Positions 1 through 54,450 of a stretch of DNA of 64,000 bases are shown here, one piece after another; position 1 is the first letter of the stretch; each line of letters begins with the position of its first letter. This DNA comes from Bacilli bacterium (GTDB lineage Bacteria > Bacillota_I > Bacilli_A > RF39 > UBA660), in the NCBI GenBank assembly GCA_017406955.1, contig JAFQXM010000007.1, forward strand, positions 144,729 through 208,728. Direction: 5' to 3'. A program made the translations under genes and the position numbers. The notes under the pieces are model-generated. The model saw only the letters and a list, made by a program, of their open reading frames with translations, was not told the DNA's origin and searched no databases.

Positions 1-510
1 CTTAATAAATTAGAAAACAAAAAAATAGATAGTTTAATCATTGATGTTAGATCAAATCCAGGTGGACACTTAAATCAAGTTACTAAAATACTAGAATTAT
101 TTATGAATAAGAAAAAAGTTTTATATCAAATAGAATTAAAAGGTAAGAGAATTAAAAAACATTCTAATACATCTGAAAAAAGGAATTATAAAGTAGGAGT
201 ATTAATAAATGAAGCTAGTGCTTCAGCATCCGAAATATTAGCAGGAGCTTTTAAAGAATCATATGATAATTCAGTATTAGTAGGTATCAAAACATATGGA
301 AAAGGAACAGTACAAAAAGCATATCAATTAACAACAGGTTCAAGCATAAAATATACAACAGAAAAATGGTTAACGCCAAAAGGTAATTGGATTGATAAAA
401 AAGGAATAGAACCTACAGAGAAAGTAGAATTAACAGAAGAATATAAGAATGATCCTAAAGATGAAAATGATTCACAATTACAAAAGGTAATAGAACTATT
501 AATAAAATAA
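1..510 (+). CDS. C-terminal processing peptidase (S41 family), 3' part; the gene begins upstream of the window
   Basis: Frame 1 is open from nt 1 (LNKLENKKIDSLIIDVRSNPGGHLNQ...). GVLINEASASASEILAGAF is the tail-specific protease catalytic Ser box, followed by the GKGTVQ motif. Confidence 0.75.
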   Translation, partial: LNKLENKKIDSLIIDVRSNPGGHLNQVTKILELFMNKKKVLYQIELKGKRIKKHSNTSEKRNYKVGVLINEASASASEILAGAFKESYDNSVLVGIKTYGKGTVQKAYQLTTGSSIKYTTEKWLTPKGNWIDKKGIEPTEKVELTEEYKNDPKDENDSQLQKVIELLIK

Positions 511-537
511 GAGTCTAATTATTAGACTCTTTTAATT
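511..537. terminator. Bidirectional rho-independent terminator between the convergent peptidase and sortase genes
   Basis: Hairpin agagtctaat/tattagactct followed by a T-run. Confidence 0.45.
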
Positions 538-1054
538 TACTGTTAATTATTAATTGTTTGTTATCATGAATTGGACTACATGTAGTTAAAACTAATTGTT
601 TATTATAATCTTTATTGATATTAATATACCCATTTTTATCTTGTTCCCAAATATTAGTAACTATATATACATATTTTATATTCTTATATATAAGAATTAT
701 ATTATCATTTATATGTAATTTATCTAAATATTTAAAATAAGAAATATCATCATCACCAGAATGAGCTGCGATAAACATAATACTATTAGTATTACTAGGT
801 TCAATAGAACCATCTAATATAGTAACATTTTCATCTACATTATTATGTTTACTATTAATAGAATATAAATCATTATTAATATTAATTTTATTTATTATAA
901 TTTTACCTATAGGTTTTTCCTTATATTTAGGAGTTAAACCATTAATTAATAAAGATTTAGATACTATAGAAGTCTTATTATTAGTATAAATAACATTACA
1001 TATAACTAAATATATAATTAGTATTATGATACAGTAACAAATTTTCTTAAACAT
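515..1054 (-). CDS. Small sortase (class D-like transpeptidase)
   Basis: N-terminal TM segment, FIAAHSG His box and LVLTTCSP (TLxTC catalytic Cys motif). Its start overlaps the 3' end of the upstream adhesin gene by 31 nt. Confidence 0.7.
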   Translation of the reverse strand: MFKKICYCIIILIIYLVICNVIYTNNKTSIVSKSLLINGLTPKYKEKPIGKIIINKININNDLYSINSKHNNVDENVTILDGSIEPSNTNSIMFIAAHSGDDDISYFKYLDKLHINDNIILIYKNIKYVYIVTNIWEQDKNGYININKDYNKQLVLTTCSPIHDNKQLIINSKLKESNN

Positions 1055-2460
1055 ATTAACATAATAATTTTAATTAATTTATCTAAAAAACTATTATTAC
1101 TCCTAGTATTTGGTACTTTAATTTTATAATCAGTTAAATTATATATTAAATTATCACTAGATAATACATCAATAAAGAAGTCTTCTACCTTATAATAACC
1201 ATCTTTAGAATTAAGTTGTTTTACTTTATATCTACCATAAGGAAGTATAACTTCTGCATATCCACTATTATCAGTAGTTATAGTAGTAATCAATTTATTA
1301 CTTTTATTATAAATATTAAATACTACATTACCCTCAGCATTATTACCCTCATAACTCTTATTAATAGCTACTTTAGCTTTTATTACTTTGTTTTCTAAAG
1401 TTAATTTTATATTAGGATCATTCTTAGAAATATTTACTTCATAAGTTTTATCATCTAAATTATATCCAATACCAGCTTTAATTTCTTTTAAATAATATTT
1501 ACCAAAAGATATATTTTCTATAAAACCAATAGAATTATTATCAATACTTATTTCTTTTAATTTATTCATATCAGTATCATATAATCCATAAATAGCTCCT
1601 TTTAATTCTGCATCCCCACTAGGTTTAGTAGTTTTAGTATCACTATCTATTTTAGTTATTTCAACACTAGTTTTAATAACATTTACTTTTAAGTTATAGC
1701 TTTTACTATCAATATCACCAGTTTCTACTAAATCTTGACTATTACTAGCTTGATAGAAAATAATAGGTCTATTATGAACTCTACTACTTCTAGTTAATTT
1801 TATATCATAAGAACCTTCTTTTAACTCATCAGATATTAATTTATTATTAGATATTTTAAATAAACTATTAGAAGAACTATAAGAGTTTAATATATTATTA
1901 GTATCAGTTATATTCAAACTTTCACCTTCAACAAGATCATATTCTTTATTAATAATGGAAGGTGAAATTTGATAATTATTAATTAAACTATTAATCTCAT
2001 TCATCTCACTAGTAAACTTTTGAACTCTAGTACCATTTAATCCTTCAGTAAAATAAAAATCACCATTAGGATCGGCAGTCTGCCATATCATAAATTGTGT
2101 AATCGCATACCACTTACTATCAGTATGAGAACCATATCCATAACCAAAGTGCGCAATCATAGAAATACGTGTTTTCTGATATGCAGATAAACTACTAGGA
2201 TTAATAGTGGACTGATATTGAGCACTTTCATTAAAGAAATTAAAAGGTTCTATACAATAAGCAAAGTCATTAGTACCACTTTGTCTAAAAAACCTAGCTT
2301 TTTGATAATAAATAGTATTACTCCCATTAGCTCTTTTATTCATGTAGATCCCATCAATATATTCCCCCTCATAAAAATTAACAGTACTTGCATATACATT
2401 AGTAGTTTTACATAATGTAATAGTAAGTATAAGCATTAAGAAAAATATAAACTTCTTCAA
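1024..2460 (-). CDS. Thioester-domain (TQXA-type) surface adhesin with Cna-B-like C-terminal domain and cell-wall sorting signal
   Basis: Signal peptide MKKFIFFLMLILTITLCKTTNVYA. Thioester motifs AYCIEPF (Cys) and TQFMIWQ (Gln). The C-terminus is VPNTRS followed by a hydrophobic stretch and RKF. Confidence 0.65.
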   Translation of the reverse strand: MKKFIFFLMLILTITLCKTTNVYASTVNFYEGEYIDGIYMNKRANGSNTIYYQKARFFRQSGTNDFAYCIEPFNFFNESAQYQSTINPSSLSAYQKTRISMIAHFGYGYGSHTDSKWYAITQFMIWQTADPNGDFYFTEGLNGTRVQKFTSEMNEINSLINNYQISPSIINKEYDLVEGESLNITDTNNILNSYSSSNSLFKISNNKLISDELKEGSYDIKLTRSSRVHNRPIIFYQASNSQDLVETGDIDSKSYNLKVNVIKTSVEITKIDSDTKTTKPSGDAELKGAIYGLYDTDMNKLKEISIDNNSIGFIENISFGKYYLKEIKAGIGYNLDDKTYEVNISKNDPNIKLTLENKVIKAKVAINKSYEGNNAEGNVVFNIYNKSNKLITTITTDNSGYAEVILPYGRYKVKQLNSKDGYYKVEDFFIDVLSSDNLIYNLTDYKIKVPNTRSNNSFLDKLIKIIMLICLRKFVTVS

Positions 2461-2666
2461 AAAATCCCTCCTTTTTTTCTTAATGGCTTAGATACTAACA
2501 CAATGATTTCTAATAAACAAATGCCAAAAAAAAGAAATTTGTAAGAAAAAATACTACAAAAAGAAAAAACTATAATACAAAAAATAAATTTAGTAGAATT
2601 TATAATACAAAAAATCAAGTTTAATATAATAAATTAATATGTTATAATTCTTCTAGAGGTGATAAT

Positions 2667-4169
2667 ATGGATAATATTATAGATATCGCATCACAAATAG
2701 GTATTAATAAAAAAAATTTAGTTTTATATGGAGATGATAAAGCCAAAATATTATCTAGAGGAAATAATAAAGATAGTAAACTTATTTTAGTAACTGCGAC
2801 AACTCCTACACCGTCTGGAGAAGGGAAAACAACTATTAGTATAGGTTTAGCAGATGCTTTAAGAAAATTAGATAAAAAAGTTATATTAACATTAAGAGAA
2901 CCATCATTAGGCCCAGTATTTGGAATGAAAGGTGGCGCAACTGGTGGAGGATTAGCTAAAGTTATACCAGAAGAAGATATAAACCTACATTTTACTGGGG
3001 ATTTTCATGCGATTACCACTGCGAATAATCTAATATCAGCTGCCATAGATAATCATATTTATAATGGTAATAAACTAAATATAAAAGAGGTATTATTTAA
3101 AAGATGTTTAGATATTAATGATAGAAGTCTAAGGGATAAAGGATTTAATATAACAGCCGCTAGCGAAATAATGAGTATTATATGCTTAGCGAATGATATA
3201 GATGATTTAAGAGATAGATTATCTAATATAATAATAGGTACAAATGATAATAATGAGTATATATACTTAAAAGAATTAAATATAGTTGGAACATTATTAG
3301 TAATATTAAAAGACGCAATAAAACCAAACTTAGTTCAAACATTAGAAGAAACTCCTACCATTATACATGGAGGACCATTTGCTAATATAGCTCATGGTTG
3401 TAATAGTGTCATTGCTACTAAAACAGCTCTAAGTTATGCAGACTATGTAGTAACAGAAGCAGGATTTGCCGCAGATTTAGGTGCAGAAAAATTCTTTGAT
3501 ATAAAATGCAGACAAAGTAATATAAAACCAGACTGCATAGTAATAACCACAACAATAAAATCATTAAAGCATAATAGAAAAGAGAATTTAAAAATACATT
3601 ATGAAAATATGAAAAAGTTTAATACTAATGTAGTAGTATGTTTAAATAAATTTGATAATGATAAAAAAGAAGAAATAGAAGAATTAAAAGATTACTGTAA
3701 TAAAGAAAATATTCCACTCACTATATGTGAATCATTTCAAAAAGGTAGTAAAGGAAGTATAGATTTAGCTAAATTAGTTTTAAAAGAATTAGAAAAAGAT
3801 AATAAATTTAAATTATTATATGATAACAGTCTAAGTATAAACGAAAAAATAGATATTATATCTAAAGAAATATATAGAGCTAATAATGTAATATATAGCG
3901 AAGAATCATTAAGAAAAATAGACACAATAAATAAAAATAACTTATCTTATCTTCCAATTTGTGTATCTAAAACACAATATTCATTATCTGATGATAAAAA
4001 TAATACAAAAAAAGATTATAATATTACAGTAACAGATATAAATATATATAATGGAGCAGGTTTCATCACAGTACTATTAGGAAGTGTTGTTACAATGCCA
4101 GGATTACCAAAAGAACCTAACTATGAAAATATAGATTTAATAGATAATAAAATAATAGGATTAAAATAA
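2667..4169 (+). CDS. fhs: Formate--tetrahydrofolate ligase
   Basis: TPTPSGEGKTTISIGLADAL P-loop and overall FTHFS collinearity; SD aggtga precedes the ATG. Confidence 0.93.
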   Translation: MDNIIDIASQIGINKKNLVLYGDDKAKILSRGNNKDSKLILVTATTPTPSGEGKTTISIGLADALRKLDKKVILTLREPSLGPVFGMKGGATGGGLAKVIPEEDINLHFTGDFHAITTANNLISAAIDNHIYNGNKLNIKEVLFKRCLDINDRSLRDKGFNITAASEIMSIICLANDIDDLRDRLSNIIIGTNDNNEYIYLKELNIVGTLLVILKDAIKPNLVQTLEETPTIIHGGPFANIAHGCNSVIATKTALSYADYVVTEAGFAADLGAEKFFDIKCRQSNIKPDCIVITTTIKSLKHNRKENLKIHYENMKKFNTNVVVCLNKFDNDKKEEIEELKDYCNKENIPLTICESFQKGSKGSIDLAKLVLKELEKDNKFKLLYDNSLSINEKIDIISKEIYRANNVIYSEESLRKIDTINKNNLSYLPICVSKTQYSLSDDKNNTKKDYNITVTDINIYNGAGFITVLLGSVVTMPGLPKEPNYENIDLIDNKIIGLK

Positions 4170-4196
4170 AAAGACATCAGTAGATGTCTTTATTCT
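4170..4196. terminator. Bidirectional terminator between fhs and the convergent gene
   Basis: Hairpin aagacatc/agt/agatgtctt followed by a T-run. Confidence 0.5.
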
Positions 4197-4846
4197 TTAG
4201 GCTTTTCTTTGTTCTCTGTATTATCTTTAGTAGTATTAGGTTCATATATATTAATAGTACCAGTATACATTCTATTTTTATATGTTAAACGATATTGATA
4301 ATTACCACTCTTTGCAGTATTAACTGCAGATAAATCTATAGTAGTATTCTTTTTAACTTCTTCATCTAATTGTTCAACTACATAAGTTTGTACATCTGTT
4401 GATAAAGAAGAACCTACTTCTAAATCTAAATCTTTTACTGTTATATTAGCATTAGGTAATTCTTTTTCTTTAACAACATAAGTTGCACTAAATTTTTTCT
4501 TTTTATAAGTTATTGTGTATGTATAACTACCAGCTTGATTAACATTAACCATAGAAGTATCTAATTTTAAGTTTTTAATTATATTCTCATCTATATCATC
4601 AGGATTTTCCAAAAAGTCTCTAATATTAACACTCATTGGTTTATTAACCTCTGACTCCATATCTTTAAGCTTTATTTCATTACTCTTAGAACTAGCGACA
4701 CGTTTTTGGACAACTTTTAAATTGATACTATCTGGATCAACTGGATTCTTAATATATGCCATACTAGTACCAGTACCAATTAAAGTAGTTCCCCATACAG
4801 CTAGTGCTATAGAAAAAATTTTCTTTTGCTGAATAGATACTTTCAT
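4190..4846 (-). CDS. Hypothetical secreted protein with two internal ~90-aa repeats
   Basis: Start reassigned to MKVSIQQKK, with SD agagg 7 nt upstream; this gives a signal peptide ending ...TSMA. The internal duplication is GSYTYTITYKKKKF vs GNYQYRLTYKNRMY. Confidence 0.5.
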   Translation of the reverse strand: MKVSIQQKKIFSIALAVWGTTLIGTGTSMAYIKNPVDPDSINLKVVQKRVASSKSNEIKLKDMESEVNKPMSVNIRDFLENPDDIDENIIKNLKLDTSMVNVNQAGSYTYTITYKKKKFSATYVVKEKELPNANITVKDLDLEVGSSLSTDVQTYVVEQLDEEVKKNTTIDLSAVNTAKSGNYQYRLTYKNRMYTGTINIYEPNTTKDNTENKEKPKE

Positions 4847-4944
4847 ACACATACCTCTTTCTTTAATAATTATAATATAAAAACACAATATAAACAATAA
4901 AATATATATTATATTTTATACTTTACACAGAATTTATACACAAT

Positions 4945-6059: not shown

Positions 6060-7139
6060 ATGGAACCATATAAAGCTAAACTATTACCTATTTCTTATGA
6101 GTTAGATAAAGAAACAATTAAATTATTAGGACAAGCAAATGATAAATATGGTCAATATAAATCATTATTAAAAGTATTTAAATTTGATCAAAAATTTTTC
6201 TTAGATTCTTTAGTACTAGGAGAAAGTATAAGATCATCAAGAATTGAAGGAACACAAATATCCCAAGATGATATGTATTATATGGATTACAAAGAAACAA
6301 ATGATAGTATTAAAGAAGTTAAAAATTTAAAGAAAATGTTGGAGTATGCAAATACTAAATTAAAAGATAAAGACTTTAGTATTGATATGATTAATAAAAT
6401 GCATAAAATTTTATTATCTGGAACTAGAGGTGAAGATAAATCACCTGGTAAAATACGTACAATACAAAACTATATTGGACTAAGAGGTTTAGGTAAAGAA
6501 GGCGCAACATTTGTTCCTCCTATTCCAGAAGAAGTTCCAGAATTATTAGATAATCTTATAGAATATATGAATAATATGTATAATGATGAAGCCTTTATAA
6601 AAGTGGCAATATCTCATGTACAATTTGAATCTATTCACCCATATAATGATGGTAATGGTAGAATGGGAAGAGCTCTAATGACTTTAGAATTAGCTAAATT
6701 AAAAGGTGATGAACCAATATTATTTTTATCAGAAGTAATAGAATTATTTAAAGCTAATTATTACAATACTTTAACTGAGTGTAGACATGGTAATGTAGAT
6801 GGCTTTATTAGATTTTTCTTACAATGTGTAGTAGACCAATGCACTAGAAATATTGGTAGAATAGAAAAGATAAATAGAGTTTATGAAGAAGATGAACAAA
6901 CTATAAAGGAAAATATGAGTGGTAGTATAGTAGTTAGAATGCATCCATTAATGATGAAAAAAATAGTATTTACTGCTCAAGATATGGCAGATGAATTAGA
7001 TGTTCATATTAATTCTATAAATAAAGTATTAAATCGTTTAATAGAATTAAATATAATAAAAAAAGAAAAGAAAGAAGGTACAAATAGGATAACATATAGA
7101 TATATTAGAGTCTATGATACCTTTGTAGAACAAATATAA
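6060..7139 (+). CDS. fic: Fic family protein (class II, N-terminal inhibitory motif) with C-terminal winged HTH
   Basis: HPYNDGNGRMGRAL matches the Fic motif HPFx(D/E)GNGR. SSRIEG matches the (S/T)xxxE(G/N) inhibitory helix. Confidence 0.85.
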   Translation: MEPYKAKLLPISYELDKETIKLLGQANDKYGQYKSLLKVFKFDQKFFLDSLVLGESIRSSRIEGTQISQDDMYYMDYKETNDSIKEVKNLKKMLEYANTKLKDKDFSIDMINKMHKILLSGTRGEDKSPGKIRTIQNYIGLRGLGKEGATFVPPIPEEVPELLDNLIEYMNNMYNDEAFIKVAISHVQFESIHPYNDGNGRMGRALMTLELAKLKGDEPILFLSEVIELFKANYYNTLTECRHGNVDGFIRFFLQCVVDQCTRNIGRIEKINRVYEEDEQTIKENMSGSIVVRMHPLMMKKIVFTAQDMADELDVHINSINKVLNRLIELNIIKKEKKEGTNRITYRYIRVYDTFVEQI

Positions 7140-20529: not shown

Positions 20530-21417
20530 ATGACTAAGGAGGAACTAAGAAAAAGAAGAGAAAGTGGTAATTATCCAATAGTAGATTTAAAAATATTTGA
20601 CTCAATAAATAATATTAAATTTACTGATTTTACCCTAGATCATATGAAAGATACTAAAGACTTATATGTTAATTATTTAGATCAAATATTTGAAATGAAA
20701 AATAATGATCAAAAGAGTTTCTTAAACACAATAAAGTCTATGGAAATAATTGATAATCAAGCTTTAGAAAAAGAAGATAGTTTTATGATGTCTTTATATA
20801 TGCAAGCTACTAAAGAAAATTCAATTGATTATTTATTAAAAAACACCTCTAAAAAATTAGATAAAAAGACATTTATAAATGGTCATAAAGTATTATTACA
20901 TGGAACTAGTAGTGATCAATTTTCTATTAATGATTATCGTAAGGATAATGAAAAATTTGTAGGTAGATATGAAAATCATGAACCTATTATTAGTTATTTT
21001 GTTCTTTCTAGTGATAATATAGAAGATGCAATAGATAAAATAATTGAGTTTTATAACTCATCTTTATATGAAGATAAATTATTTACTAAGTCACAAATAA
21101 TTCATGGATTAGTTAGTACTCTACAATTATTTGATGATGGTAATACTAGATATGCTAGATTATTACAAAATATTAAGCTATATGATTTAACTAAAAAAGA
21201 AATAAATGGATCTCTAAAAGCTCCCGCAATCTATGGAACTAGATCATATTTCCCATATAGAGGTAAGTATAGAGAATTAATAAGTAATTTAGCTATTAAT
21301 CCAGATAATGAAAATTGGAATAATTGGTTTAACTTTAATTTAAATAGATTTGAAGATCAAATATATTTCTTAGAAGAAAAATTAGAAAAATTTAAAAAAT
21401 TACAAAAGAAAAAATAA
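20530..21417 (+). CDS. Hypothetical protein with degenerate Fic-like motif
   Basis: QLFDDGNTRYARLL aligns to HPFxDGNGRxxRLL but with His->Gln and Pro->Leu. The rest shows no recognisable similarity. Confidence 0.5.
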   Translation: MTKEELRKRRESGNYPIVDLKIFDSINNIKFTDFTLDHMKDTKDLYVNYLDQIFEMKNNDQKSFLNTIKSMEIIDNQALEKEDSFMMSLYMQATKENSIDYLLKNTSKKLDKKTFINGHKVLLHGTSSDQFSINDYRKDNEKFVGRYENHEPIISYFVLSSDNIEDAIDKIIEFYNSSLYEDKLFTKSQIIHGLVSTLQLFDDGNTRYARLLQNIKLYDLTKKEINGSLKAPAIYGTRSYFPYRGKYRELISNLAINPDNENWNNWFNFNLNRFEDQIYFLEEKLEKFKKLQKKK

Positions 21418-23092: not shown

Positions 23093-24742
23093 ATGAAGAA
23101 AGATAAATCTATGAGAAAAAACAACTTTATAACTGGTGCTTTTATTGCGACATTAGGTATTGTAATTACTAAGATACTAGGTATTTTATATGTAATACCA
23201 TTTCACTCTATTATAGGTGATAAAGGTGGAGCTTTATATGGTTATGCTTATACTATATATTTATTCTTTATGTCTATATCAACTGCAGGAATACCACTAG
23301 CTATTAGTAATATAGTATCTGAATATCAAACTCTAGGTTATTATAATGCTAAAAGAAGAGCTTTTATTATAGGTAAAAGAGTAGCTTTATTGTTAGGTTT
23401 TATATCTTTTCTAATACTTATGTTATGTGCTCCAATACTAGCTAAATTTATATTAGGTGATTTAACTGGAGGAAATACTATAGAAGATGTTACTTTAGTT
23501 ATTAGAGTAATATCTACTGCGATACTAGTGGTTCCAGTATTAAGTATATATAGAGGATATTTTGAAGGACATAGATTTATGATTGCGCCTTCTATATCGC
23601 AAGTTATAGAACAATTATTTAGGATAACTATTATTCTTTTAGGTAGTTATTTATCATTAAAAGTATTTAAACAATCACTTTCTACTGCAGTAGGAATTGC
23701 GGTTTTTGGCGCAACTGCGGGTGCTATTATTTCATATTTATATTTACTACATAAAAGAATAAGAAATAGAAAGAAATTTAATGAAAGAATAAGACCAGTA
23801 AATGAACCTATAATTACTAATAAACAAATACTAAGAAAAATAGTCTTTTATGCAGTACCATTTATAATGATAGATTTATTTAAATCATTATATAGTTGTA
23901 TAGATATGGTTACTGTAGTAAAGGGATTAGTAAAGTATGCTAAATTTAAAACTAGTAATGCAGAAGTTATAATGAGTATGTTATCTACATGGGCTGCTAA
24001 GTTTAATATGATTATTGCATCTATTTCTGCAGGAGTAATAGTTAGTTTAATACCTAATTTAACTAAAAGTTATGTAGATAAAGATAGTAAAGATATGAAT
24101 AAAAAGATAAATCAATCTATTAGTATAGTTTTATTCTTAGCTCTACCAATAGCCTTAGGAATTAGTTTTTTATCTAAATCTATTTGGATGTTATTCTATG
24201 GTAAAAGTATTTATGGACCTAGTGTATTATCATATTCTATATTTATAGGTTTATTTATGTCATTATTTACAGTAGTAATATCTGTTATGCAAGTATTTAA
24301 AAACTATAAAGCTATACTTATTAGTTTATTATCTGGAGTAATAGTTAAAATATTACTTAATAACTATTTAATTAAATTATTCCATCAATTAGGACTTCCA
24401 GAATATCACGGAATAATAACTGCGACTATACTAGGTTATTTATTATCATTTATAATATGTCTAGTTGTATTAAGAAAGAAATATAAAGTAAACTATGATG
24501 AATTAGTTAAAAATTTCTTTGATATATTATGTGGATCTATATTAATGGTTATAGTCTTATATTTATTTAAATTTGTAATGCCAATATATTCAGATATTAG
24601 AATAATGAATCTATTAATTATTATAATATATGGAATTATAGGCGTATTAATATATTTTATATATACATATAAAACAAAAACTATTATAAATATATTTGGT
24701 AAAAGTTTCTTAAAGAAGTTTAAAATAAAAAAAGAAAAGTAA
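23093..24742 (+). CDS. MOP-superfamily polysaccharide/lipid-II flippase (MurJ/YtgP/SpoVB-like), 14 TM
   Basis: Polytopic membrane protein whose N-terminal region (GAFIATLGIVITKILGILYVIPF...YGYAYTIY) is typical of the MviN/SpoVB family. Confidence 0.7.
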   Translation: MKKDKSMRKNNFITGAFIATLGIVITKILGILYVIPFHSIIGDKGGALYGYAYTIYLFFMSISTAGIPLAISNIVSEYQTLGYYNAKRRAFIIGKRVALLLGFISFLILMLCAPILAKFILGDLTGGNTIEDVTLVIRVISTAILVVPVLSIYRGYFEGHRFMIAPSISQVIEQLFRITIILLGSYLSLKVFKQSLSTAVGIAVFGATAGAIISYLYLLHKRIRNRKKFNERIRPVNEPIITNKQILRKIVFYAVPFIMIDLFKSLYSCIDMVTVVKGLVKYAKFKTSNAEVIMSMLSTWAAKFNMIIASISAGVIVSLIPNLTKSYVDKDSKDMNKKINQSISIVLFLALPIALGISFLSKSIWMLFYGKSIYGPSVLSYSIFIGLFMSLFTVVISVMQVFKNYKAILISLLSGVIVKILLNNYLIKLFHQLGLPEYHGIITATILGYLLSFIICLVVLRKKYKVNYDELVKNFFDILCGSILMVIVLYLFKFVMPIYSDIRIMNLLIIIIYGIIGVLIYFIYTYKTKTIINIFGKSFLKKFKIKKEK

Positions 24743-24766
24743 TTTAATTACTTTTTCTTTTTTATA
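24729..24766. terminator. Bidirectional terminator palindrome shared by the 3' coding ends of two convergent genes
   Basis: aaagaaaagtaatt/t/aattactttttcttt spans the stop codons of the flippase gene (24742) and the fem gene (24748). Confidence 0.5.
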
Positions 24767-26043
24767 TTCTTTAATTTATGATATAATCCAAAAGCTATAT
24801 TATAAGTAAAGTACCAGAACTTACTTATAACTAAATCATATTCTCCTAATAATTCAACTACATGTCCACCAAAACTTTTTTTAAATAGATATAGTCCATA
24901 TAATGGATTAGAAGGATTAAAATCTCCAGTAATACCATAGAAGTTATATCTTTTATATTTATTTTCTACCGCGTATTTAACACCTGCATAATGTATTGTA
25001 TAAGCTGATTTAAATTTCATCACATCATCAAGTGTACCTCCTAGTAAAGATAATACTTCATTACCATATACTAAGAATAATATTCCTCCTAATACTTTTT
25101 TATCTCCGAATTTCTTTTTATACTCTTTAATCTTATCTAAATCTTTATTTAATCTGTTAATTGCTTCTTCATCTTGTTTATTACTAGATTTATATTTTTT
25201 CTCATTCATTTTTAATAAATTATTATCATGTTTATAAACTCTATCCTCTAAAGCATTTTTATGAGTATCTAATTCATCTTTAGTATTTGCCTCATATATA
25301 TTAAAATCAATTTCTCCAATTAATATTTTTAAAATGCCTAGATCATGTAGATTATCCCACATCGCTTCATAATAAGAAAATGGTCTATCAATAAACTCTC
25401 TTCTATCAGAAGTCTTCTGCATTATTTCTTTAAATACTTTTAACTCATCTTTATCTATTTCCCTAGTAGTAATACCACAACGATCATTCTTACGAAGTAT
25501 TTGTCTAGTTTTAGAATCCATTTTACTATTAACTTCATCTATAGATTTATTATCGGTTTCAATTACATGCATCCATCTAGGTTGTAGAGTATCCTGCATA
25601 ACATTAAAACCAAAATGTTTATAGCCTAAATCTATTAAGTTTTTATGAGCTTTTTTGTTATTATTACCTTTATCTACAATATCTCCATTATTATCTCTTT
25701 CTTGATATTCTAAGTATGGATCTATTTTAATAAATATAGCGTTATTTTCTTTCGCAAATTCTTTTATCTTCTCAGTAAAAGTCTTTAATAACTTCTTATC
25801 ATTATAATCTATTAAAAAACCTCTAGGAGAATAAAACATAGCTTTTTTAACTATAGGTAAATTCTTCTTTAAAAGTAATGCACAAGCTTTAATTTCTTTA
25901 TTGTTTTTAAGCCCTATATAGTATGGAGTCCATCCAGTCTTATCTTTTAAATTAGCCCATGCTTCTGTTTGATGAAAAGTAATTTGAGGACTTTTATCTG
26001 CATACTTTTTAAATTCTTTCTTACTTAGTTCCACTAGTTCCAT
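24748..26043 (-). CDS. FemABX-family peptidoglycan aminoacyltransferase, paralog 3
   Basis: FemAB fold signature (YYIGLKNNKEIKACALLL...FYSPRGFLIDYND) with coiled-coil insertion. The start overlaps paralog 2 by 23 nt. Confidence 0.8.
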   Translation of the reverse strand: MELVELSKKEFKKYADKSPQITFHQTEAWANLKDKTGWTPYYIGLKNNKEIKACALLLKKNLPIVKKAMFYSPRGFLIDYNDKKLLKTFTEKIKEFAKENNAIFIKIDPYLEYQERDNNGDIVDKGNNNKKAHKNLIDLGYKHFGFNVMQDTLQPRWMHVIETDNKSIDEVNSKMDSKTRQILRKNDRCGITTREIDKDELKVFKEIMQKTSDRREFIDRPFSYYEAMWDNLHDLGILKILIGEIDFNIYEANTKDELDTHKNALEDRVYKHDNNLLKMNEKKYKSSNKQDEEAINRLNKDLDKIKEYKKKFGDKKVLGGILFLVYGNEVLSLLGGTLDDVMKFKSAYTIHYAGVKYAVENKYKRYNFYGITGDFNPSNPLYGLYLFKKSFGGHVVELLGEYDLVISKFWYFTYNIAFGLYHKLKNIKKKK

Positions 26044-27301
26044 CTTTAATCACCTTTTTTCTTTTAATCTTTCTATATATAGGAATTAATCTTTTATAAA
26101 CAAAATATAATAATTTATTAGTAATTAAATCAAATTCTCCAATTAATTCAATATATTCCCCACCAAGTCTTTTCTTAAAAGAGTGAATTCCATATATAGG
26201 ATTACTTTTATCAGGATTAGCTATTCCACAAGTACCAAAACAATCTACATATTTATATCCTTCACTATTGGCATCTTTTATTATCTTCCAATAACACTCA
26301 TAATTACCATTAAGTCTCATTAATTTAGAATTATTCCCTCCATGTACAGTCCATACAGTATCTTTGTATTTAACAGTAATTATAGAAGATAATACTACTT
26401 CTTTTTCTTTAATACTCTTAATTTCATCTAACTCTTTATTTAACTTGTTAACTTTATTATTTAAGTCATTAATTTTACCTTTATTTTTATCTTTATTCTT
26501 ACTTAAATTATCTATTCTATTATTAATATCATTAATATTAGCTTTAATAGTATCTTTTAATTTCTTGATATTAGCTTTAACTATATATAAATCACTTAAA
26601 TTATCTTTATTAAATATTTCATAGAAGTTTTTATAATAGTTAATATTAGCTTGCAATATACCTTCTCTTTTAGAAGTTTCCTTCATAGTAATATAGAAGT
26701 CTTCTATATCATTAATATCTCCTTTATATATATCTAAATTATATTGATTATTCTTATTTAAAATCTTTCTAGTAGTAGGATGCATACCTTTTAATACATC
26801 TTTTATATCTTTATCTATATCAATTTTATAAGTAAATCTAGGTTGTTCTTTAGAAAAATCTATATTAAAACCTAAATGCTTATAACCTATCGTTTTCAAA
26901 TAATTAATTAATAGATAATTATTATCACTACCTATAACATTTCCGTCTATATCTAAATTATGTCTTTTAATAGCGGGATCTATCTTAATAAAAATAGCCT
27001 TATTTTTCTTCGCAAATTTCTTTAACTCTGAAGTAAAAGTTTTTATAAGATCTTTGTTATTATAATCTATTATATATCCTCTAGGAGAATAATAATATGA
27101 ATATCCTAGTAGTAGTTTTTTCTCTAGTAATAATGCAGTACAAACAAGTTTTTTTCCTTTTCTAAGACCAATATATATTGGATTAAAGTTCTTCTCTTTT
27201 CTTATTTGTCCAAAGTCGTATGACTGCATAAAATGACTATAACTACTATTTCTAACAAATTCTTCATATTCATCTTTTTCAATATAGTCTAACTTATACA
27301 T
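26021..27301 (-). CDS. FemABX-family peptidoglycan aminoacyltransferase, paralog 2
   Basis: IYIGLRKGKKLVCTALLL...YYSPRGYIIDYNN and a long coiled-coil insert. SD agaggtgaag upstream. Confidence 0.8.
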   Translation of the reverse strand: MYKLDYIEKDEYEEFVRNSSYSHFMQSYDFGQIRKEKNFNPIYIGLRKGKKLVCTALLLEKKLLLGYSYYYSPRGYIIDYNNKDLIKTFTSELKKFAKKNKAIFIKIDPAIKRHNLDIDGNVIGSDNNYLLINYLKTIGYKHLGFNIDFSKEQPRFTYKIDIDKDIKDVLKGMHPTTRKILNKNNQYNLDIYKGDINDIEDFYITMKETSKREGILQANINYYKNFYEIFNKDNLSDLYIVKANIKKLKDTIKANINDINNRIDNLSKNKDKNKGKINDLNNKVNKLNKELDEIKSIKEKEVVLSSIITVKYKDTVWTVHGGNNSKLMRLNGNYECYWKIIKDANSEGYKYVDCFGTCGIANPDKSNPIYGIHSFKKRLGGEYIELIGEFDLITNKLLYFVYKRLIPIYRKIKRKKVIKDGTSGTK

Positions 27302-27319
27302 AACTTCACCTCTAAATAA

Positions 27320-28618
27320 TTATAACATGTTTTTATTTTTCTTTGTCTTTTTGTATTTATGATTTCTATATATTGGAACTAACCTCTTAAATATAAAATA
27401 TATTAACTTATTAGTAACATAAGTAAATTCTCCAATAAACTCTACATAATCTCCACCAAACTTCTTCTTAAACTCATGTACACCAAGTCTAGGATTATCT
27501 TTAGAAAAATCACCAATCGCACCAAACTGATCATATATATCTAATTTCTCATTCTTAGCGTATTTTATATGTTCAAAATAAGTATGATAATTAACATAAG
27601 TTTCAGTTAGTATATTATGATTACCCGCAAATAAGACCCATGCTTTATTACCGTATTGAACTATAAAATGAGCACTTAAAGTTAAATTATTTCCATATTT
27701 ATCTTTGTATTCTTTAAATTTTATAATTTCACTTTGTAGATGTTCTTTTTGTTTAGTTAATTCTTTTAATTTGTTTTTTGCGCTCTTACTTAAATTATCA
27801 ATAGGAAGTATTGATATTTGATTACTAACTCTTTTTAAGTCTTTACTAAGAGTTTTAATAGTTTTATCTAAATTAACTTTACCTAAAAATAAAATAGCTT
27901 TAGTATTTTTATTGCCATTAAATACATCATATAAAGTTTCATAATAATCTTCGTCATAAGAGATAAAATCTTTTCTAACCTCAGTTAAAGACATTAAATT
28001 ATTAAAAGTTTTTATATCTTTTTTAGTACCTATCTCAACACTAGTATTTAATTTTTTAGACTTTTCTATACGTTTTTTAGTAGTTTTAGAAAAATGATTC
28101 TTAATATCTTCTATATCTTGTCCTAAATCAATTCTAAAAGAATATCTAGGTTGTCTAGTTTCAAAATTCTTAGTGAAACCTAAATGTTTATATCCTAAAT
28201 CTTTAAGATTATTAAATATTTTTTTATAATTATAATCTAGTTTTATTTGTTCATCTAAATAATTATATTTTTTAATTATAATATCAGGATCAATAACAAA
28301 GAAAATAGATTTTTTACTTTTAGTAAACTTAATAATTTCTCTAGTCATAATCTTAACTAATTTAGAGTCATTATAATCAATTATAAATCCTCTAGGAGAG
28401 TAGAAATAATAGTAATTTAGAAATACATATTTTTGTAGTAATAAACATGCCGCGACTATTTTATTATTACTATCTACAAGTCCTAAATAATAAGGAGTAA
28501 CATCTTTTTTAGCTTTACAGAATTCTCCCCATGAATAAGATTGTAAGAAATGCGATTTATTATGACTTTTTACAAAATTATCATATTTAGTTTTATCTAA
28601 AGTAATTAATTTATACAT
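27320..28618 (-). CDS. FemABX-family peptidoglycan aminoacyltransferase, paralog 1
   Basis: YYLGLVDSNNKIVAACLLL...FYSPRGFIIDYND. Start moved to MYKLITLD, which has SD gaggatga. Confidence 0.8.
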   Translation of the reverse strand: MYKLITLDKTKYDNFVKSHNKSHFLQSYSWGEFCKAKKDVTPYYLGLVDSNNKIVAACLLLQKYVFLNYYYFYSPRGFIIDYNDSKLVKIMTREIIKFTKSKKSIFFVIDPDIIIKKYNYLDEQIKLDYNYKKIFNNLKDLGYKHLGFTKNFETRQPRYSFRIDLGQDIEDIKNHFSKTTKKRIEKSKKLNTSVEIGTKKDIKTFNNLMSLTEVRKDFISYDEDYYETLYDVFNGNKNTKAILFLGKVNLDKTIKTLSKDLKRVSNQISILPIDNLSKSAKNKLKELTKQKEHLQSEIIKFKEYKDKYGNNLTLSAHFIVQYGNKAWVLFAGNHNILTETYVNYHTYFEHIKYAKNEKLDIYDQFGAIGDFSKDNPRLGVHEFKKKFGGDYVEFIGEFTYVTNKLIYFIFKRLVPIYRNHKYKKTKKNKNML

Positions 28619-28684
28619 ATAAATCATCCTCATTATTAGTATACCACAATCTATTTACTTCAACAAAAAAAGAACATAAAGTTC

Positions 28685-46138: not shown

Positions 46139-47614
46139 CTAAATTACAATAGCAATCATATTATTAGAACCTTTATTTACTACTTTTGATAGAGTGGTTT
46201 GTAGTTTAAATCTAATGTTTTCTGGCATTAGGTTTATTTTTGATTGGATACCTTCTTGTACTATAGAATCTAGACTTCTACCAAATATTTCACTTTTCCA
46301 TATTTCTGTTACATCTTTAGCTTTATCTTTAGTTAAGCTATCTATTAATTCTTTACATTGTACTTCACTACCTATTATTGGTTCAAAAGTGGATTCTACA
46401 TCTACTCTTATCATATGAATAGAAGGGGCAACAGCTTTTAATTTAACTCCATATCTAGGACCTTGTTTAATTATTTCAGGTTTATCTAGCTTCATATCTT
46501 CAATAGCAGGGGTAGCCACTCCATAACCAGTTTGTTTAACCATCTTTAATGCATATTTGATTCCATCATATTCTTTTTTCGCAATATTAAAGTCTTGGAA
46601 CAGTGATAATAAATCAGCTTTGTTTTTAACATCTATTTTTATTATATCAGTAAGTGTTTTATCATATAAATCTTTTGGGGCAGTTAAATTAACAGTTATA
46701 ATACCAGTAGATGGATCTACATCAGATAAATAAGCTTTTTCTATTAAGTCGTTTGTTAAAAATTTATTAGTAATATTATCTACATCTCTAAGTTTATCTA
46801 TTTCTACAACACTATCTCTAATAGAACTTACATAACTTTCTTTAACTGGATGATCATGATTTAGTATGGCAATCCATTCAGGCATATTAATTTTTACTTC
46901 TAATACTGGAAATTCATATAAAGCCTCTCTTAGAATATCATACATATCTTTTTCATTCATTGCTTCTATATTAACAGGAAGAGTCGCAACATTATATTCA
47001 TCCTTAATAGATTCTACTATTTTAGTAGTCTCAGGTAGAGTAGGATGAGTAGTATTTACTATTACAATAAATGGTTTATTCATACTACTTAACTCATTAA
47101 TAACACGTTTTTCTGCATCTACATAGTCACTTCTATTAAATTCTCCAATTGATCCGTCTGTAGTAACTACAATACCTATAGTAGAATGATCTTTAATAAC
47201 TTTCTCAGTACCAACCTCGGCAGCTTCTACAAAAGGTATTTCTTCGCTATACCAAGGAGTTTTTACCATTCTAGGACCATTTTCATCAGTAGCTCCAATT
47301 GCATTATCAATCATATAACCAACACAATCAATTAATTTAATATTACAACTAAAGTCATCAATATCTATTTTAGCTGTATTATTAGGAACAAATTTAGGTT
47401 CTGTAGTCATAATAGTTTTACCAGCTGCACTTTGAGGAATCTCATCTAAAGCACGTTTTTTCTCATACTCATCAGAAATATTAGGAACAATTAAAGTTTC
47501 TACCATTCTTTTAATAAAAGTAGATTTACCAGTACGTACTGCACCAACTACACCTAGATATATATCACCATTACCTCTAGCAGCTATATTTTTAATAATT
47601 TCTTGTTTATCCAT
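46139..47614 (-). CDS. spoIVA: Stage IV sporulation protein A (spore coat morphogenetic ATPase)
   Basis: IYLGVVGAVRTGKSTFIKRM Walker A and full-length collinearity; AAGGAG SD before MDKQ. Confidence 0.9.
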   Translation of the reverse strand: MDKQEIIKNIAARGNGDIYLGVVGAVRTGKSTFIKRMVETLIVPNISDEYEKKRALDEIPQSAAGKTIMTTEPKFVPNNTAKIDIDDFSCNIKLIDCVGYMIDNAIGATDENGPRMVKTPWYSEEIPFVEAAEVGTEKVIKDHSTIGIVVTTDGSIGEFNRSDYVDAEKRVINELSSMNKPFIVIVNTTHPTLPETTKIVESIKDEYNVATLPVNIEAMNEKDMYDILREALYEFPVLEVKINMPEWIAILNHDHPVKESYVSSIRDSVVEIDKLRDVDNITNKFLTNDLIEKAYLSDVDPSTGIITVNLTAPKDLYDKTLTDIIKIDVKNKADLLSLFQDFNIAKKEYDGIKYALKMVKQTGYGVATPAIEDMKLDKPEIIKQGPRYGVKLKAVAPSIHMIRVDVESTFEPIIGSEVQCKELIDSLTKDKAKDVTEIWKSEIFGRSLDSIVQEGIQSKINLMPENIRFKLQTTLSKVVNKGSNNMIAIVI

Positions 47615-47686
47615 ATACATTCTCCTTTATTCATAATAAATTTATGTTAATTACAATTTATATATTCCAATAAAAAAATAAAATGT

Positions 47687-53073: not shown

Positions 53074-53689
53074 AAAGATAATTAATTACTTAGATGAACT
53101 ATTTCCTAATCCTAAATGTGAATTAACATATTTTAATGACTATAGTTTATTAATGGCAATTGTATTAAGCGCTCAATGCACTGACAAAAGAGTAAATATG
53201 GTTACTCCAATTATTTTTAAAAAATATAAAAGTTTAGAAGAATTAAGTAATGCAGATGTTAAAGATTTAGAGGATATAATTAGGCCGGTAGGATCTTTTA
53301 GAAAAAAAAGTGTATACTTAAAAGAAATAGCTAAACTATTATTAGAAAAATATGATGGTAAAGTTCCAATAGATAAACATCTATTAGAACAATTTCCTGG
53401 TGTTGGTAGGAAGACAGCAAACGTATTTTTAAGTGAGTTTTATAACTATACTGCTATTGCGGTAGATACACATGTAGATAGAGTTTCTAAGAGGTTAAAA
53501 TTAGCTTATAGTAATGATAGTGTTAATAAAGTAGAAGAAAAATTGATGAAGAAGTTTCCTAAAGATAAGTGGGCTAAATTACATTTGCAATTAGTTCTAT
53601 TTGGAAGGTACTATTGTAAGGCTATCAAACCAGAGTGTACTAATTGTAAATTGAAAGATTTATGTAGATACAAAGGAAGAGATAAATGA
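53063..53689 (+). CDS. nth: Endonuclease III
   Basis: HhH-GPD fold (LPGVGRKTANVFL) and 4Fe-4S cluster CKAIKPECTNCKLKDLC. Overlaps dnaD by 11 nt. Confidence 0.9.
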   Translation: MKNEKIINYLDELFPNPKCELTYFNDYSLLMAIVLSAQCTDKRVNMVTPIIFKKYKSLEELSNADVKDLEDIIRPVGSFRKKSVYLKEIAKLLLEKYDGKVPIDKHLLEQFPGVGRKTANVFLSEFYNYTAIAVDTHVDRVSKRLKLAYSNDSVNKVEEKLMKKFPKDKWAKLHLQLVLFGRYYCKAIKPECTNCKLKDLCRYKGRDK

Positions 53690-54399
53690 AGTTAAAAAGA
53701 ATTGTATATATATTAATTGAATTAGTTTTTTTAGTACTAATAATTATTTCTATTATTATGATTTATAAATGGTTTAATGAAAAAAGAAAAGTAAATAAAG
53801 AATTAGAACAAATTACAAATAAAGTTATTATAGGAAAAGAAAATAATAAAGAAATAAACTTTAAAAAACTAAAAACAATAAATAATGATACAGTAGGATG
53901 GTTAAAAATAAATAATACAAACATAGATTATCCGGTAGTACAATCTAAAGATAATAGTTTTTATTTAAATCATTCTTTTAACAAGAAACAAAACAATGCT
54001 GGTTGGATCTTTATGGACTATAACAATAAATTAGATGGTACAGATAAAAATATTATTATATATGGGCATAATAGATTAGATAACATCATGTTTGGAACAT
54101 TAAAGGAAACCTTAGATAAAGATTGGTATAGTAATAATGATAATTTAAAAATAAAATTTATTACACAAGATGAAGAGGTTACATATAAAATATTTTCTAT
54201 TTATAAAATAAAAGAAGAAACATATTATTTAAAAACAAATTTCAATAGTATAAACTATTTAAAATTTATTAATACATTAAAAAAACGTAGCATTCATGAT
54301 TTTGATATAAATTTGAATGATACAAAACAAATACTAACATTATCAACTTGTTCAGGAATGAATAATTATAGATTGGTTATTCATGCCAAAAAAATATAG
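53686..54399 (+). CDS. srtB: Class B sortase
   Basis: TVGWLKINNTNIDYPVVQSKDNSFYLNHSFN, YGHN and TLSTCS, near-collinear with staphylococcal SrtB. N-terminal TM. Confidence 0.85.
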   Translation: MKLKRIVYILIELVFLVLIIISIIMIYKWFNEKRKVNKELEQITNKVIIGKENNKEINFKKLKTINNDTVGWLKINNTNIDYPVVQSKDNSFYLNHSFNKKQNNAGWIFMDYNNKLDGTDKNIIIYGHNRLDNIMFGTLKETLDKDWYSNNDNLKIKFITQDEEVTYKIFSIYKIKEETYYLKTNFNSINYLKFINTLKKRSIHDFDINLNDTKQILTLSTCSGMNNYRLVIHAKKI

Positions 54400-54406
54400 A
54401 AATATA

Positions 54407-54450
54407 AAAAGATTGTACCTGGAAATTACAGGTTACAATCTTTTTTTGTT
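54407..54450. terminator. Bidirectional terminator between srtB and ponA
   Basis: aagattgtacctg/...../caggttacaatctt followed by a T-run. Confidence 0.5.

Follow-up and report, generated by a model that had tools for sequence, protein, structure and literature searches.

A thioester-domain adhesin and an overlapping dedicated sortase with glutamine at the catalytic arginine position in a reduced-genome gut Bacilli bacterium

The closest described relatives of the system examined here are the TIE proteins BaTIE (structure 6fwv), SaTIE (6fx6) and EfmTIE86, in which a signal peptide and an N-terminal Class II thioester domain (TED) are accompanied by a CnaB stalk and a sortase signal. We analyzed a gene pair that shares this layout, located in a 64,000 nucleotide stretch of DNA (‘the window’; positions 144,729 to 208,728 of contig JAFQXM010000007.1, assembly GCA_017406955.1) from a Bacilli bacterium. 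The pair comprises an adhesin gene (1024..2460 in window coordinates; 478 amino acids), encoding a signal peptide, a Class II TED, two SpaA/CnaB domains and a sorting signal containing the sequence VPNT, and a dedicated sortase gene (515..1054; 179 amino acids), encoding an N-terminal membrane helix and a catalytic domain of Pfam family PF04203. Both genes, and all features within them described below, are on the reverse strand. TED adhesins and dedicated sortases are already known; what appears to be new here is a sortase clade with Gln in place of the catalytic Arg (‘Gln-type’ sortases), and a VPxT-x sorting signal with a free choice of residue after the Thr (P1').

Passages of PMC6194298 describe two bond-forming residues, a Cys within the motif [YFL]CΦζ and a Gln within the weak motif ΦQζΦΦ, as the only universally conserved residues of TEDs; the Gln and Trp of a further motif, TQXXΦW, are placed on a helix beside the thioester bond and are described as not essential for it. 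According to the same source, Class II TEDs carry a β-sandwich insert and have their bonding Gln about 170–200 residues after the Cys, as in the pairs Cys296 and Gln467 of SaTIE (bonded in crystals) and Cys88 and Gln292 of EfmTIE86. The adhesin has counterparts of all three elements of these proteins (the Cys, the TQXXΦW helper motif and the distal Gln), although sequence identity in fold alignments is low, at 17–19%. TIE proteins are described as sortase-anchored through LPXTG-type signals (LPATG in BaTIE; PMC6194298, PMC8092201), whereas the adhesin has a VP[N/D/E]T-x signal in which Gly is rare at P1', a short tail, no unstructured linker and an overlapping private sortase.

The Streptococcus pyogenes adhesin Cpa and its sortase Spy0129, as described in PMC3019223, are alike in that a TED adhesin with a VP motif (VPPTG) is served by a specialized sortase from the same locus. 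Cpa differs in having Class I TEDs (as stated in PMC6194298) and in being joined to the major pilin, and Spy0129 is reported as a class B enzyme with the usual Arg; the pair described here has no pilin partner, a residue other than Gly at P1' and Gln in the sortase. A search of the open-access literature found no account of an Arg-less or Gln-type sortase or of a VPNT/VPDT-x motif; the only VP-type motifs it turned up were VPPTG (Cpa) and VPDTG, both in pilus papers.

Class D sortases (Bacillus anthracis SrtD/LPNTA and Bacillus subtilis YhcS/YhcR) are small enzymes that serve one or a few substrates and are often encoded beside them; in their motifs P2 is Asn or Asp, and P1' is not Gly. The adhesin signal differs from these in having Val or Ile rather than Leu at P4, and the sortase in having its Arg replaced by Gln. 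With canonical class A–F sortases the enzyme shares its fold, a His on an AAHSG loop, a Cys ending an LxLTTC strand and an N-terminal membrane anchor; the Gln-type clade is distinguished by the invariant Gln at the Arg position, a Lys (Lys140) after strand 126–139, and the VPxT-x motif. Reviews and recent papers, including one from 2026 (PMC13257024), describe His-Cys-Arg as common to all sortases.

The gene pair and its conservation

The gene pair is genuine, with domain match scores far above chance in Pfam and homolog searches. A prior sequence-only reading of this DNA had placed open reading frames (ORFs) of 478 and 179 amino acids at these positions, with the sortase start 31 nucleotides before the adhesin end, and had quoted the strings AYCIEP, TQFMIW, KIKVPNTR and LVLTTCS from them; the coordinates are as it gave them and all four strings are present. 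The last 31 nucleotides of the adhesin gene (1024..1054) are also the first 31 of the sortase gene, whose ATG is at 1054; the adhesin stop codon ends at 1024. The adhesin start codon is TTG, preceded at a distance of 5 nucleotides by a Shine-Dalgarno-like sequence (AAGGAGGG, 2466–2473). Inspection of the sequence ahead of the sortase ATG found no such element.

For comparison we used the best 80 of 241 loci encoding a relative, drawn from species genomes, with genes found by hidden Markov model (HMM) search. In 77 of these 80 loci the adhesin gene is followed directly by a sortase gene on the same strand. Of the three exceptions, L017 and L059 are truncated at the end of the locus, and L018 (7.4 kb) shows no sortase. 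The two genes overlap by 4–52 nucleotides in 71 of the 77 pairs; among the six pairs that do not overlap, the sortase ORF is shortened in four. This synteny supports the earlier proposal that substrate and sortase form a dedicated pair. The locus titles refer to uncultured Bacilli, Tenericutes, Mollicutes and Erysipelotrichaceae metagenome-assembled genomes (including Candidatus Faecimonas), and the sources are human, ruminant, rabbit and chicken gut. A full-length adhesin ortholog is present in all five other genomes of the genus, a degree of conservation that argues for function. In one library protein (P0255, 623 amino acids) a full adhesin (..YDYKIDVPNTSKN..) and a Gln-type sortase domain share one ORF, the first continuing into the second, which reflects either a natural fusion or a frameshift or assembly artifact.

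The sortase and the residue at its arginine position

The sortase matches PF04203 with 49.5 bits (cut-off 26.6) and TIGR01076 with a score barely above the cut-off (39.9 versus 39.35 bits), and 1011 homologs were found among 1096 candidates. An AlphaFold2 (AF2) model with a predicted local distance difference test score (pLDDT) of 88.4 consists of an N-terminal helix and a sortase barrel, and the chain ends at residue 179 directly after the last strand, with no C-terminal membrane helix in the model. His98 (codon 761–763) lies on the AAHSG loop, and Cys159 (578–580) is the last residue of strand 152–159, which contains the LVLTTCS motif. The following strand (166–178) holds Gln167 (554–556) at the position of the catalytic Arg, so that His98 and Cys159 of the His-Cys-Arg triad are present and the third residue is Gln.

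No class-specific sortase model fits this enzyme. For class D, NF033746 scored 39.3 bits (cut-off 165) and NF058671 40.7 bits (cut-off 140); the class C model NF033745 gave 40.1 bits against 160, and the class E and GN models were also far under their cut-offs. Assignment to class C, D or E was rejected on these scores. The likeness to class D (LPNTA-type) signals put forward by the sequence-only reading is not upheld, since the class D models reach only 39–41 bits where 140–165 are required and the class C model does equally well. In Foldseek searches class A and class C sortases were matched about equally (template modeling scores 0.55–0.77, E about 1e-9). Among solved sortases, the best sequence matches were pilus class C enzymes (4d7w, group B Streptococcus (GBS) SrtC1, E 4e-12; Ebp class C, E 2.4e-9), and in the profile search the class D nuclear magnetic resonance structure 2ln7 was the second-best hit (E 1.6e-9).

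His98, Cys159 and Gln167 are invariant in an alignment of 27 homologs (A2), which contains no invariant Arg. Among 193 distinct family members, His98 is conserved in 193, Cys159 in 192, Gln167 in 192 and Lys140, just after strand 126–139, in 191, and no alignment column has Arg in at least 85% of the sequences. A profile built from four Gln-type paralog groups (A4) was searched against 1.84 billion representatives, giving 6398 matches at E ≤ 1e-3, 1365 at E ≤ 1e-10 and 612 at E ≤ 1e-30. In the best 150 of those 612 representatives the His, Cys and Lys140 are present in all 150, and the Gln in 148. The HMMER alignment to GBS SrtC1 sets TTCSPIHDNK-QLII of the sortase on TCTPYMINSHRLLV (the RLLV strand), with Gln167 on the Arg.

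A Pfam search of 41 related genomes recovered 35 sortase ORFs in 35 loci. The closest Arg-bearing relatives of the Gln types are those of loci L093 (TCKKGDNTKRIVI), L105 (TCKFGYVDKRIVV) and L108 (TCSEKDNRYRLIV); in L093 and L105 the Arg is found eight residues past the Cys, at the spacing of Gln167, and leads into the hydrophobic strand that also follows Gln167. These relatives give the plainest support for Gln167 as the Arg position. We built a tree of 41 sortase sequences, leaving out two of the 35 ORFs (L094 and L112), which have no recognizable TLxTC-like strand. One clade (support 98/97) contains all 24 Gln types, these three Arg types and one Tyr type (L114), and the 13 Arg sortases that resemble classes B, C and D/E lie outside it. 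The Gln label requires a single change on this tree, with support of only 64/86 for the branch uniting the Gln types. Upstream of the Arg-bearing sortases of L105 and L108 (from relatives G022 and G012), ORFs end in KLPFLG or ELPQLY followed by a hydrophobic tail, and these ends may represent an LPxL-type signal lacking the Thr.

The genome that contains the window (1.136 Mb, 25.9% GC, 93.7% complete) has six sortase-like genes (four Gln types and two class B-like with Arg) and four TED genes. Covalent attachment looks central to gut persistence, because a genome of ~1 Mb retains as many as four genes of each kind (TED proteins and Gln-type sortases). A TED gene overlapped by a Gln-type sortase gene also makes up two further operons, at G000 C5:396681-400020 and C5:231135-232950; the paralogous TED substrates, of 910 and 400 amino acids, end in VPNTF (with a KKSKKSNKK tail) and VPDTS, with canonical membrane tails. 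Across 16 Gln-type sortase loci of this genome and its relatives, the upstream ORF ends in VP[N/D/S]T-x and a hydrophobic tail in 12, and an unrelated gene lies upstream in the other four. The Arg types are found beside LPETG or LPTTG (class C-like) and NPKTG (class B-like), and the Tyr type beside LPNTL. Because Gln types pair with VPxT and Arg types with LPxTG or NPxTG, the change in the active site and the change in the motif go together. We give about even weight to the proposition that these enzymes are an undescribed sortase class, with a His-Cys-Gln site, a V-P-x-T motif with free P1' and a one-enzyme-one-substrate arrangement, which would serve thioester adhesins in reduced-genome gut Bacilli and would have arisen once from Arg-bearing ancestors together with the motif change.

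Further sortase and TED genes were noted in the course of this survey. The Gln-type sortase of L081 (G000 C4:9136-9801) has no substrate gene upstream, as is also the case in G002 and G003; its orthologs in G001, G004 and G005 (L097, L098 and L100) follow a VPDT-ending gene. The fourth TED protein (YAYCITP, LATQIAIW) extends between G000 C8:36280 and the contig end, where it is truncated; behind the TED it has seven or more Cys-rich repeats with the pattern C..H.CE..GD.YFGK.G..V. The window also encodes a second sortase (53686–54399, forward strand; 237 amino acids), which is class B-like with the usual Arg (TLSTCSGMNNYRLVIH) and adjoins a class A penicillin-binding protein (PBP) gene (54449–57058, reverse strand), with no substrate gene evident directly upstream.

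The thioester domain, stalk and sorting signal of the adhesin

The adhesin matches the Pfam TED family PF08341 with 36.6 bits (cut-off 22) and the SpaA family PF17802 with 78.5 bits (cut-off 23.1, two stretches). Homologs numbered 725 at E ≤ 0.001 among 8000 scored candidates, and both families are present in all 120 adhesin homologs among the matches listed. A profile from an alignment of 28 homologs (A1, also the source of the invariance calls given for the adhesin) matched solved structures of BaTIE (6fwv, E 3.9e-32) and the SaTIE TED (6fx6, E 1.3e-11). The AF2 model of the adhesin (mean pLDDT 83.3) is closest in fold to BaTIE (E 6.8e-23 over 472 aligned columns) and reaches a TMt of 0.58 with the SaTIE TED. 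On the basis of the Pfam TED and SpaA matches, the BaTIE and SaTIE profile matches and the fold match, we conclude that the adhesin belongs with the TIE proteins and that its TED is of Class II, in agreement with the thioester-domain adhesin with a CnaB-type stalk that had been described from the sequence.

A Sec signal peptide is predicted at residues 1–24 (2389..2460), where MKK and a hydrophobic helix (2–16 in the AF2 model) lead to NVYA, with ST following. The TED occupies residues of about 26–262 (1675..2385); the PF08341 match covers residues 67–151 and the alignment with 6fx6 residues 63–262. It contains Cys69 (codon 2254–2256) within AYCIEP (residues 67–72), Gln122 (2095–2097) within TQFMIW (residues 121–126) and Gln242 (1735–1737) within SNSQDLV; these three residues and Trp126 are invariant in the 28 homologs. 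In a phmmer alignment to 6fx6, Cys69 falls opposite the SaTIE Cys, and Gln242 opposite Gln218 of the chain, which is Gln467 by count from the Cys at chain index 47 (Cys296). The Cys-to-Gln spacing is 173 residues in the adhesin and 171 in SaTIE. Of the described TED motifs, YCIE fits [YFL]CΦζ, and SQDLV has Ser rather than a hydrophobic residue at the first position of ΦQζΦΦ. TQFMIW fits the helper motif TQXXΦW, so that Gln122, which the sequence-only reading had taken as the thioester partner, falls instead on a helper-motif residue. Given the SaTIE alignment and the invariance of both residues, the predicted bond is between Cys69 and Gln242, and the bond-forming Gln is most likely Gln242.

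The stalk consists of two SpaA/CnaB (prealbumin-like) domains at residues of about 265–358 and 361–446 (1123..1668), identified from the two PF17802 stretches, AF2 strands and matches to the CnaB domains of BaTIE. In the first, Lys270, Glu326 and Asn357 follow the usual pattern and would play the corresponding roles, with Asn or Asp at position 357 across the family. The second has Lys368 and an invariant Asp444, which by the same pattern may serve as their counterparts, but an invariant Gln415 at the position that corresponds to Glu326 of the first domain.

The C-terminal sorting signal (1027..1116) consists of VPNT (1105–1116; residues 449–452), Arg453 at P1' and a 25-residue tail, as defined by conservation in A1 and an AF2 helix at 458–477. 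KIKVPNTR (residues 446–453) is followed by the tail SNNSFLDKLIKIIMLICLRKFVTVS, which includes a short hydrophobic helix. Val449, Pro450 and Thr452 are invariant, and Asn451 is at least 90% conserved. We surveyed the signal in 195 distinct homologs (120 library proteins and 80 locus ORFs, minus duplicates), of which 188 fit the strict pattern L-x-[D/N]-[Y/L]-K-I-x-[V/I]-P-x-T (VPNT 142, VPDT 23, VPET 17, IPxT 6); six of the other seven keep VP[N/D]T in another context, and one is truncated. The atypical VPNT signal noted from the sequence is thereby confirmed as a family feature. The P1' residue of the 188 is Lys in 52, Arg in 34, His in 34, Ser in 32, Asn in 17, Tyr in 8, Gly in 5 and another residue in 6. 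VPNT-R and its tail depart from the canonical cell wall signal, in which LPXTG is followed by ~15–20 hydrophobic residues and a Lys/Arg-rich tail.

A proposed mechanism, its alternatives and the genomic setting

Our preferred reading of these sequences, in which we have moderate confidence, is that the two genes form an operon for a covalent surface adhesin and a private His-Cys-Gln sortase that would anchor it to the cell wall. The adhesin would be exported by Sec, and its Class II TED would form an internal Cys69-Gln242 thioester, with Gln122 and Trp126 packed beside the bond; an amine on the target would then attack the thioester to give a covalent link. The two CnaB/SpaA domains would form a short stalk. 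The signal L-x-D-Y-K-I-x-V-P-[N/D/E]-T-x and its hydrophobic tail of ~15 residues would keep the precursor at the membrane, where the co-translated membrane sortase (His98, Cys159, Gln167) would cleave after Thr452 and join the adhesin to an amine, for which the cross-bridge of lipid II is the most likely source, thereby placing it on peptidoglycan. In this scheme Gln167 would replace the catalytic Arg by hydrogen bonding.

The genome contains five matches to PBP transpeptidases and four to Mur ligases. Three tandem FemAB-family genes are located in the window (24748–28633, reverse strand; 431, 426 and 437 amino acids; E 1e-96 to 3e-80), adjoined by a gene for a Polysacc_synt/MurJ-like flippase (23093–24742), and the window also encodes a class A PBP and a carboxypeptidase of the VanY type. 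The cross-bridge to which sortases usually attach their substrates is the product of FemAB enzymes, and the FemAB trio and flippase suggest a multi-residue peptidoglycan cross-bridge in this 1.1-Mb genome. With PBP, Mur ligase and FemAB genes present, wall anchoring appears feasible, and the cell should in principle be able to anchor proteins to its wall.

Several observations weigh against wall anchoring by an active Gln-type sortase. The tail after the Thr is short (median 19 residues, mode 18, n = 188), 65 of the 188 homologs have no Lys or Arg in its last six residues, and VPNT directly abuts the last CnaB strand without a wall-spanning linker, a pilin-like layout. No sortase was seen in the 7.4-kb L018 locus. 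A MAFFT alignment of six paralogs placed Lys166, not Gln167, under the Arg; Lys166 is variable in the family and Gln167 invariant, and because of this disagreement we base the equivalence of Gln167 and Arg on spacing, conservation and the HMMER alignment. Replacement of the sortase Arg by Ala is reported to abolish or strongly cut activity in the enzymes studied (as stated in PMC13257024), and for that reason an Arg-less sortase could be slow or used in another role. Finally, the TIGR03934 (TQXA) model gave no match to the adhesin at E ≤ 0.1 (cut-off 30.4 bits), and in a whole-genome search at E ≤ 1 its only scorer was another TED gene, on contig 8 (17.9 bits). We rejected this null as a refutation of the TED: the HMM support anticipated by the sequence-only reading came from the Pfam TED model and not from TIGR03934, and since Pfam TED, the profile matches to solved structures and the fold concur, the miss appears to reflect a limit of a 42-position model.

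The direct junction of VPNT with the last CnaB strand is what would be expected under the main alternative reading, in which the sortase is instead a pilus-type ligase, joining Thr452 to a lysine of another adhesin copy or of another surface protein so that the adhesin becomes a tip or polymer unit. The pilus class C enzymes that head the solved-sortase matches fit this idea, as does Cpa, a TED adhesin that is attached to a pilus through its VPPTG motif by the pilus sortase Spy0129 (as described in PMC3019223). We nonetheless consider it unlikely, in that the operon has no second pilin gene and is flanked by S41 peptidase and formate-tetrahydrofolate ligase genes, the class C model is missed by a wide margin (40.1 versus 160 bits), the sortase is without a C-terminal membrane helix, no YPKN-like pilin motif was seen by eye among the invariant lysines, and the genome shows a pattern of one sortase per substrate gene. 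The short, weakly charged tail, the unconstrained P1' residue and the impairment of studied sortases by Arg loss (PMC13257024) would also suit a processing protease that cuts at VPNT without transpeptidation, leaving the adhesin released or held non-covalently. Strict conservation of the His, the Cys, the TLxTC-like strand and Gln167 argues for a maintained active site, however; a released covalent adhesin could not tether the cell to its target, and the paralogous Gln-sortase substrates have canonical membrane-spanning tails with KKSKK ends. We regard such a protease as quite improbable.

The enzymology preferred above could also operate with a different target, namely another bacterium (mating-pair or partner-cell attachment) rather than an animal host. 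An organism with a 1.14-Mb genome may depend on partners, which would be compatible with this idea, but no conjugation genes flank the operon, and the adhesin gene is chromosomal and conserved across the genus. Host fibrinogen is a ligand of Class I TEDs. Precedents in the literature point both ways: efficient conjugation of plasmid pLS20 in liquid medium is reported to depend on its Class II TED adhesin (PMC8092201), whereas the TED of SfbI is reported to bind a host protein covalently (PMC4450167). We give little credence to a bacterial target.

The Arg is regarded as indispensable in sortases (PMC13257024). Should Gln-type sortases prove active, sortase chemistry can proceed without it, and a large natural clade with a fixed Gln would offer a direct test of the role of the Arg, distinguishing charge from hydrogen bonding. 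A sortase that accepts VPxT-x without a Gly at P1' could widen sortase-mediated ligation. Surveys based on LPXTG will miss VPxT-x substrates in these gut Bacilli.

The operon is flanked by a convergent S41 peptidase gene and a divergent gene (2667–4169), formate-tetrahydrofolate ligase-like as named from its translation alone. Next to the sortase gene, a hairpin of 10 pairs with T-runs on both strands (509..531; the terminator scan found two sites versus 0.1 expected) is likely a bidirectional terminator, common to the S41 peptidase gene. The intergenic region upstream of the adhesin (2461..2666) is common to it and the divergent ligase gene. A promoter scan of this AT-rich DNA was uninformative, with 26 sites versus 24.3 expected, no better than shuffled sequence. 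Upstream of the adhesin gene, at 2565–2612 (reverse strand), a 14-mer (TTTTTTGTATTATA) occurs twice, 34 nucleotides apart; it may act as a promoter or operator, or may have arisen by chance in AT-rich DNA.

The sequence-only reading placed a phase-variable dockerin system next to this locus; no dockerin family was found at E ≤ 1e-5 among the 22 window ORFs scanned, a subset of those in the window. The window contains two Fic/DOC-family genes (6060–7139 and 20530–21417, forward strand) and, within this reduced genome, a SpoIVA sporulation gene (46139–47620, reverse strand). Two genes upstream of the adhesin operon, positions 4190–4897 (reverse strand) encode a membrane-anchored protein of 235 amino acids with weak Ig-like matches (Bact_surface_Ig-like and Big_3, all under their cut-offs), which may be another surface protein.

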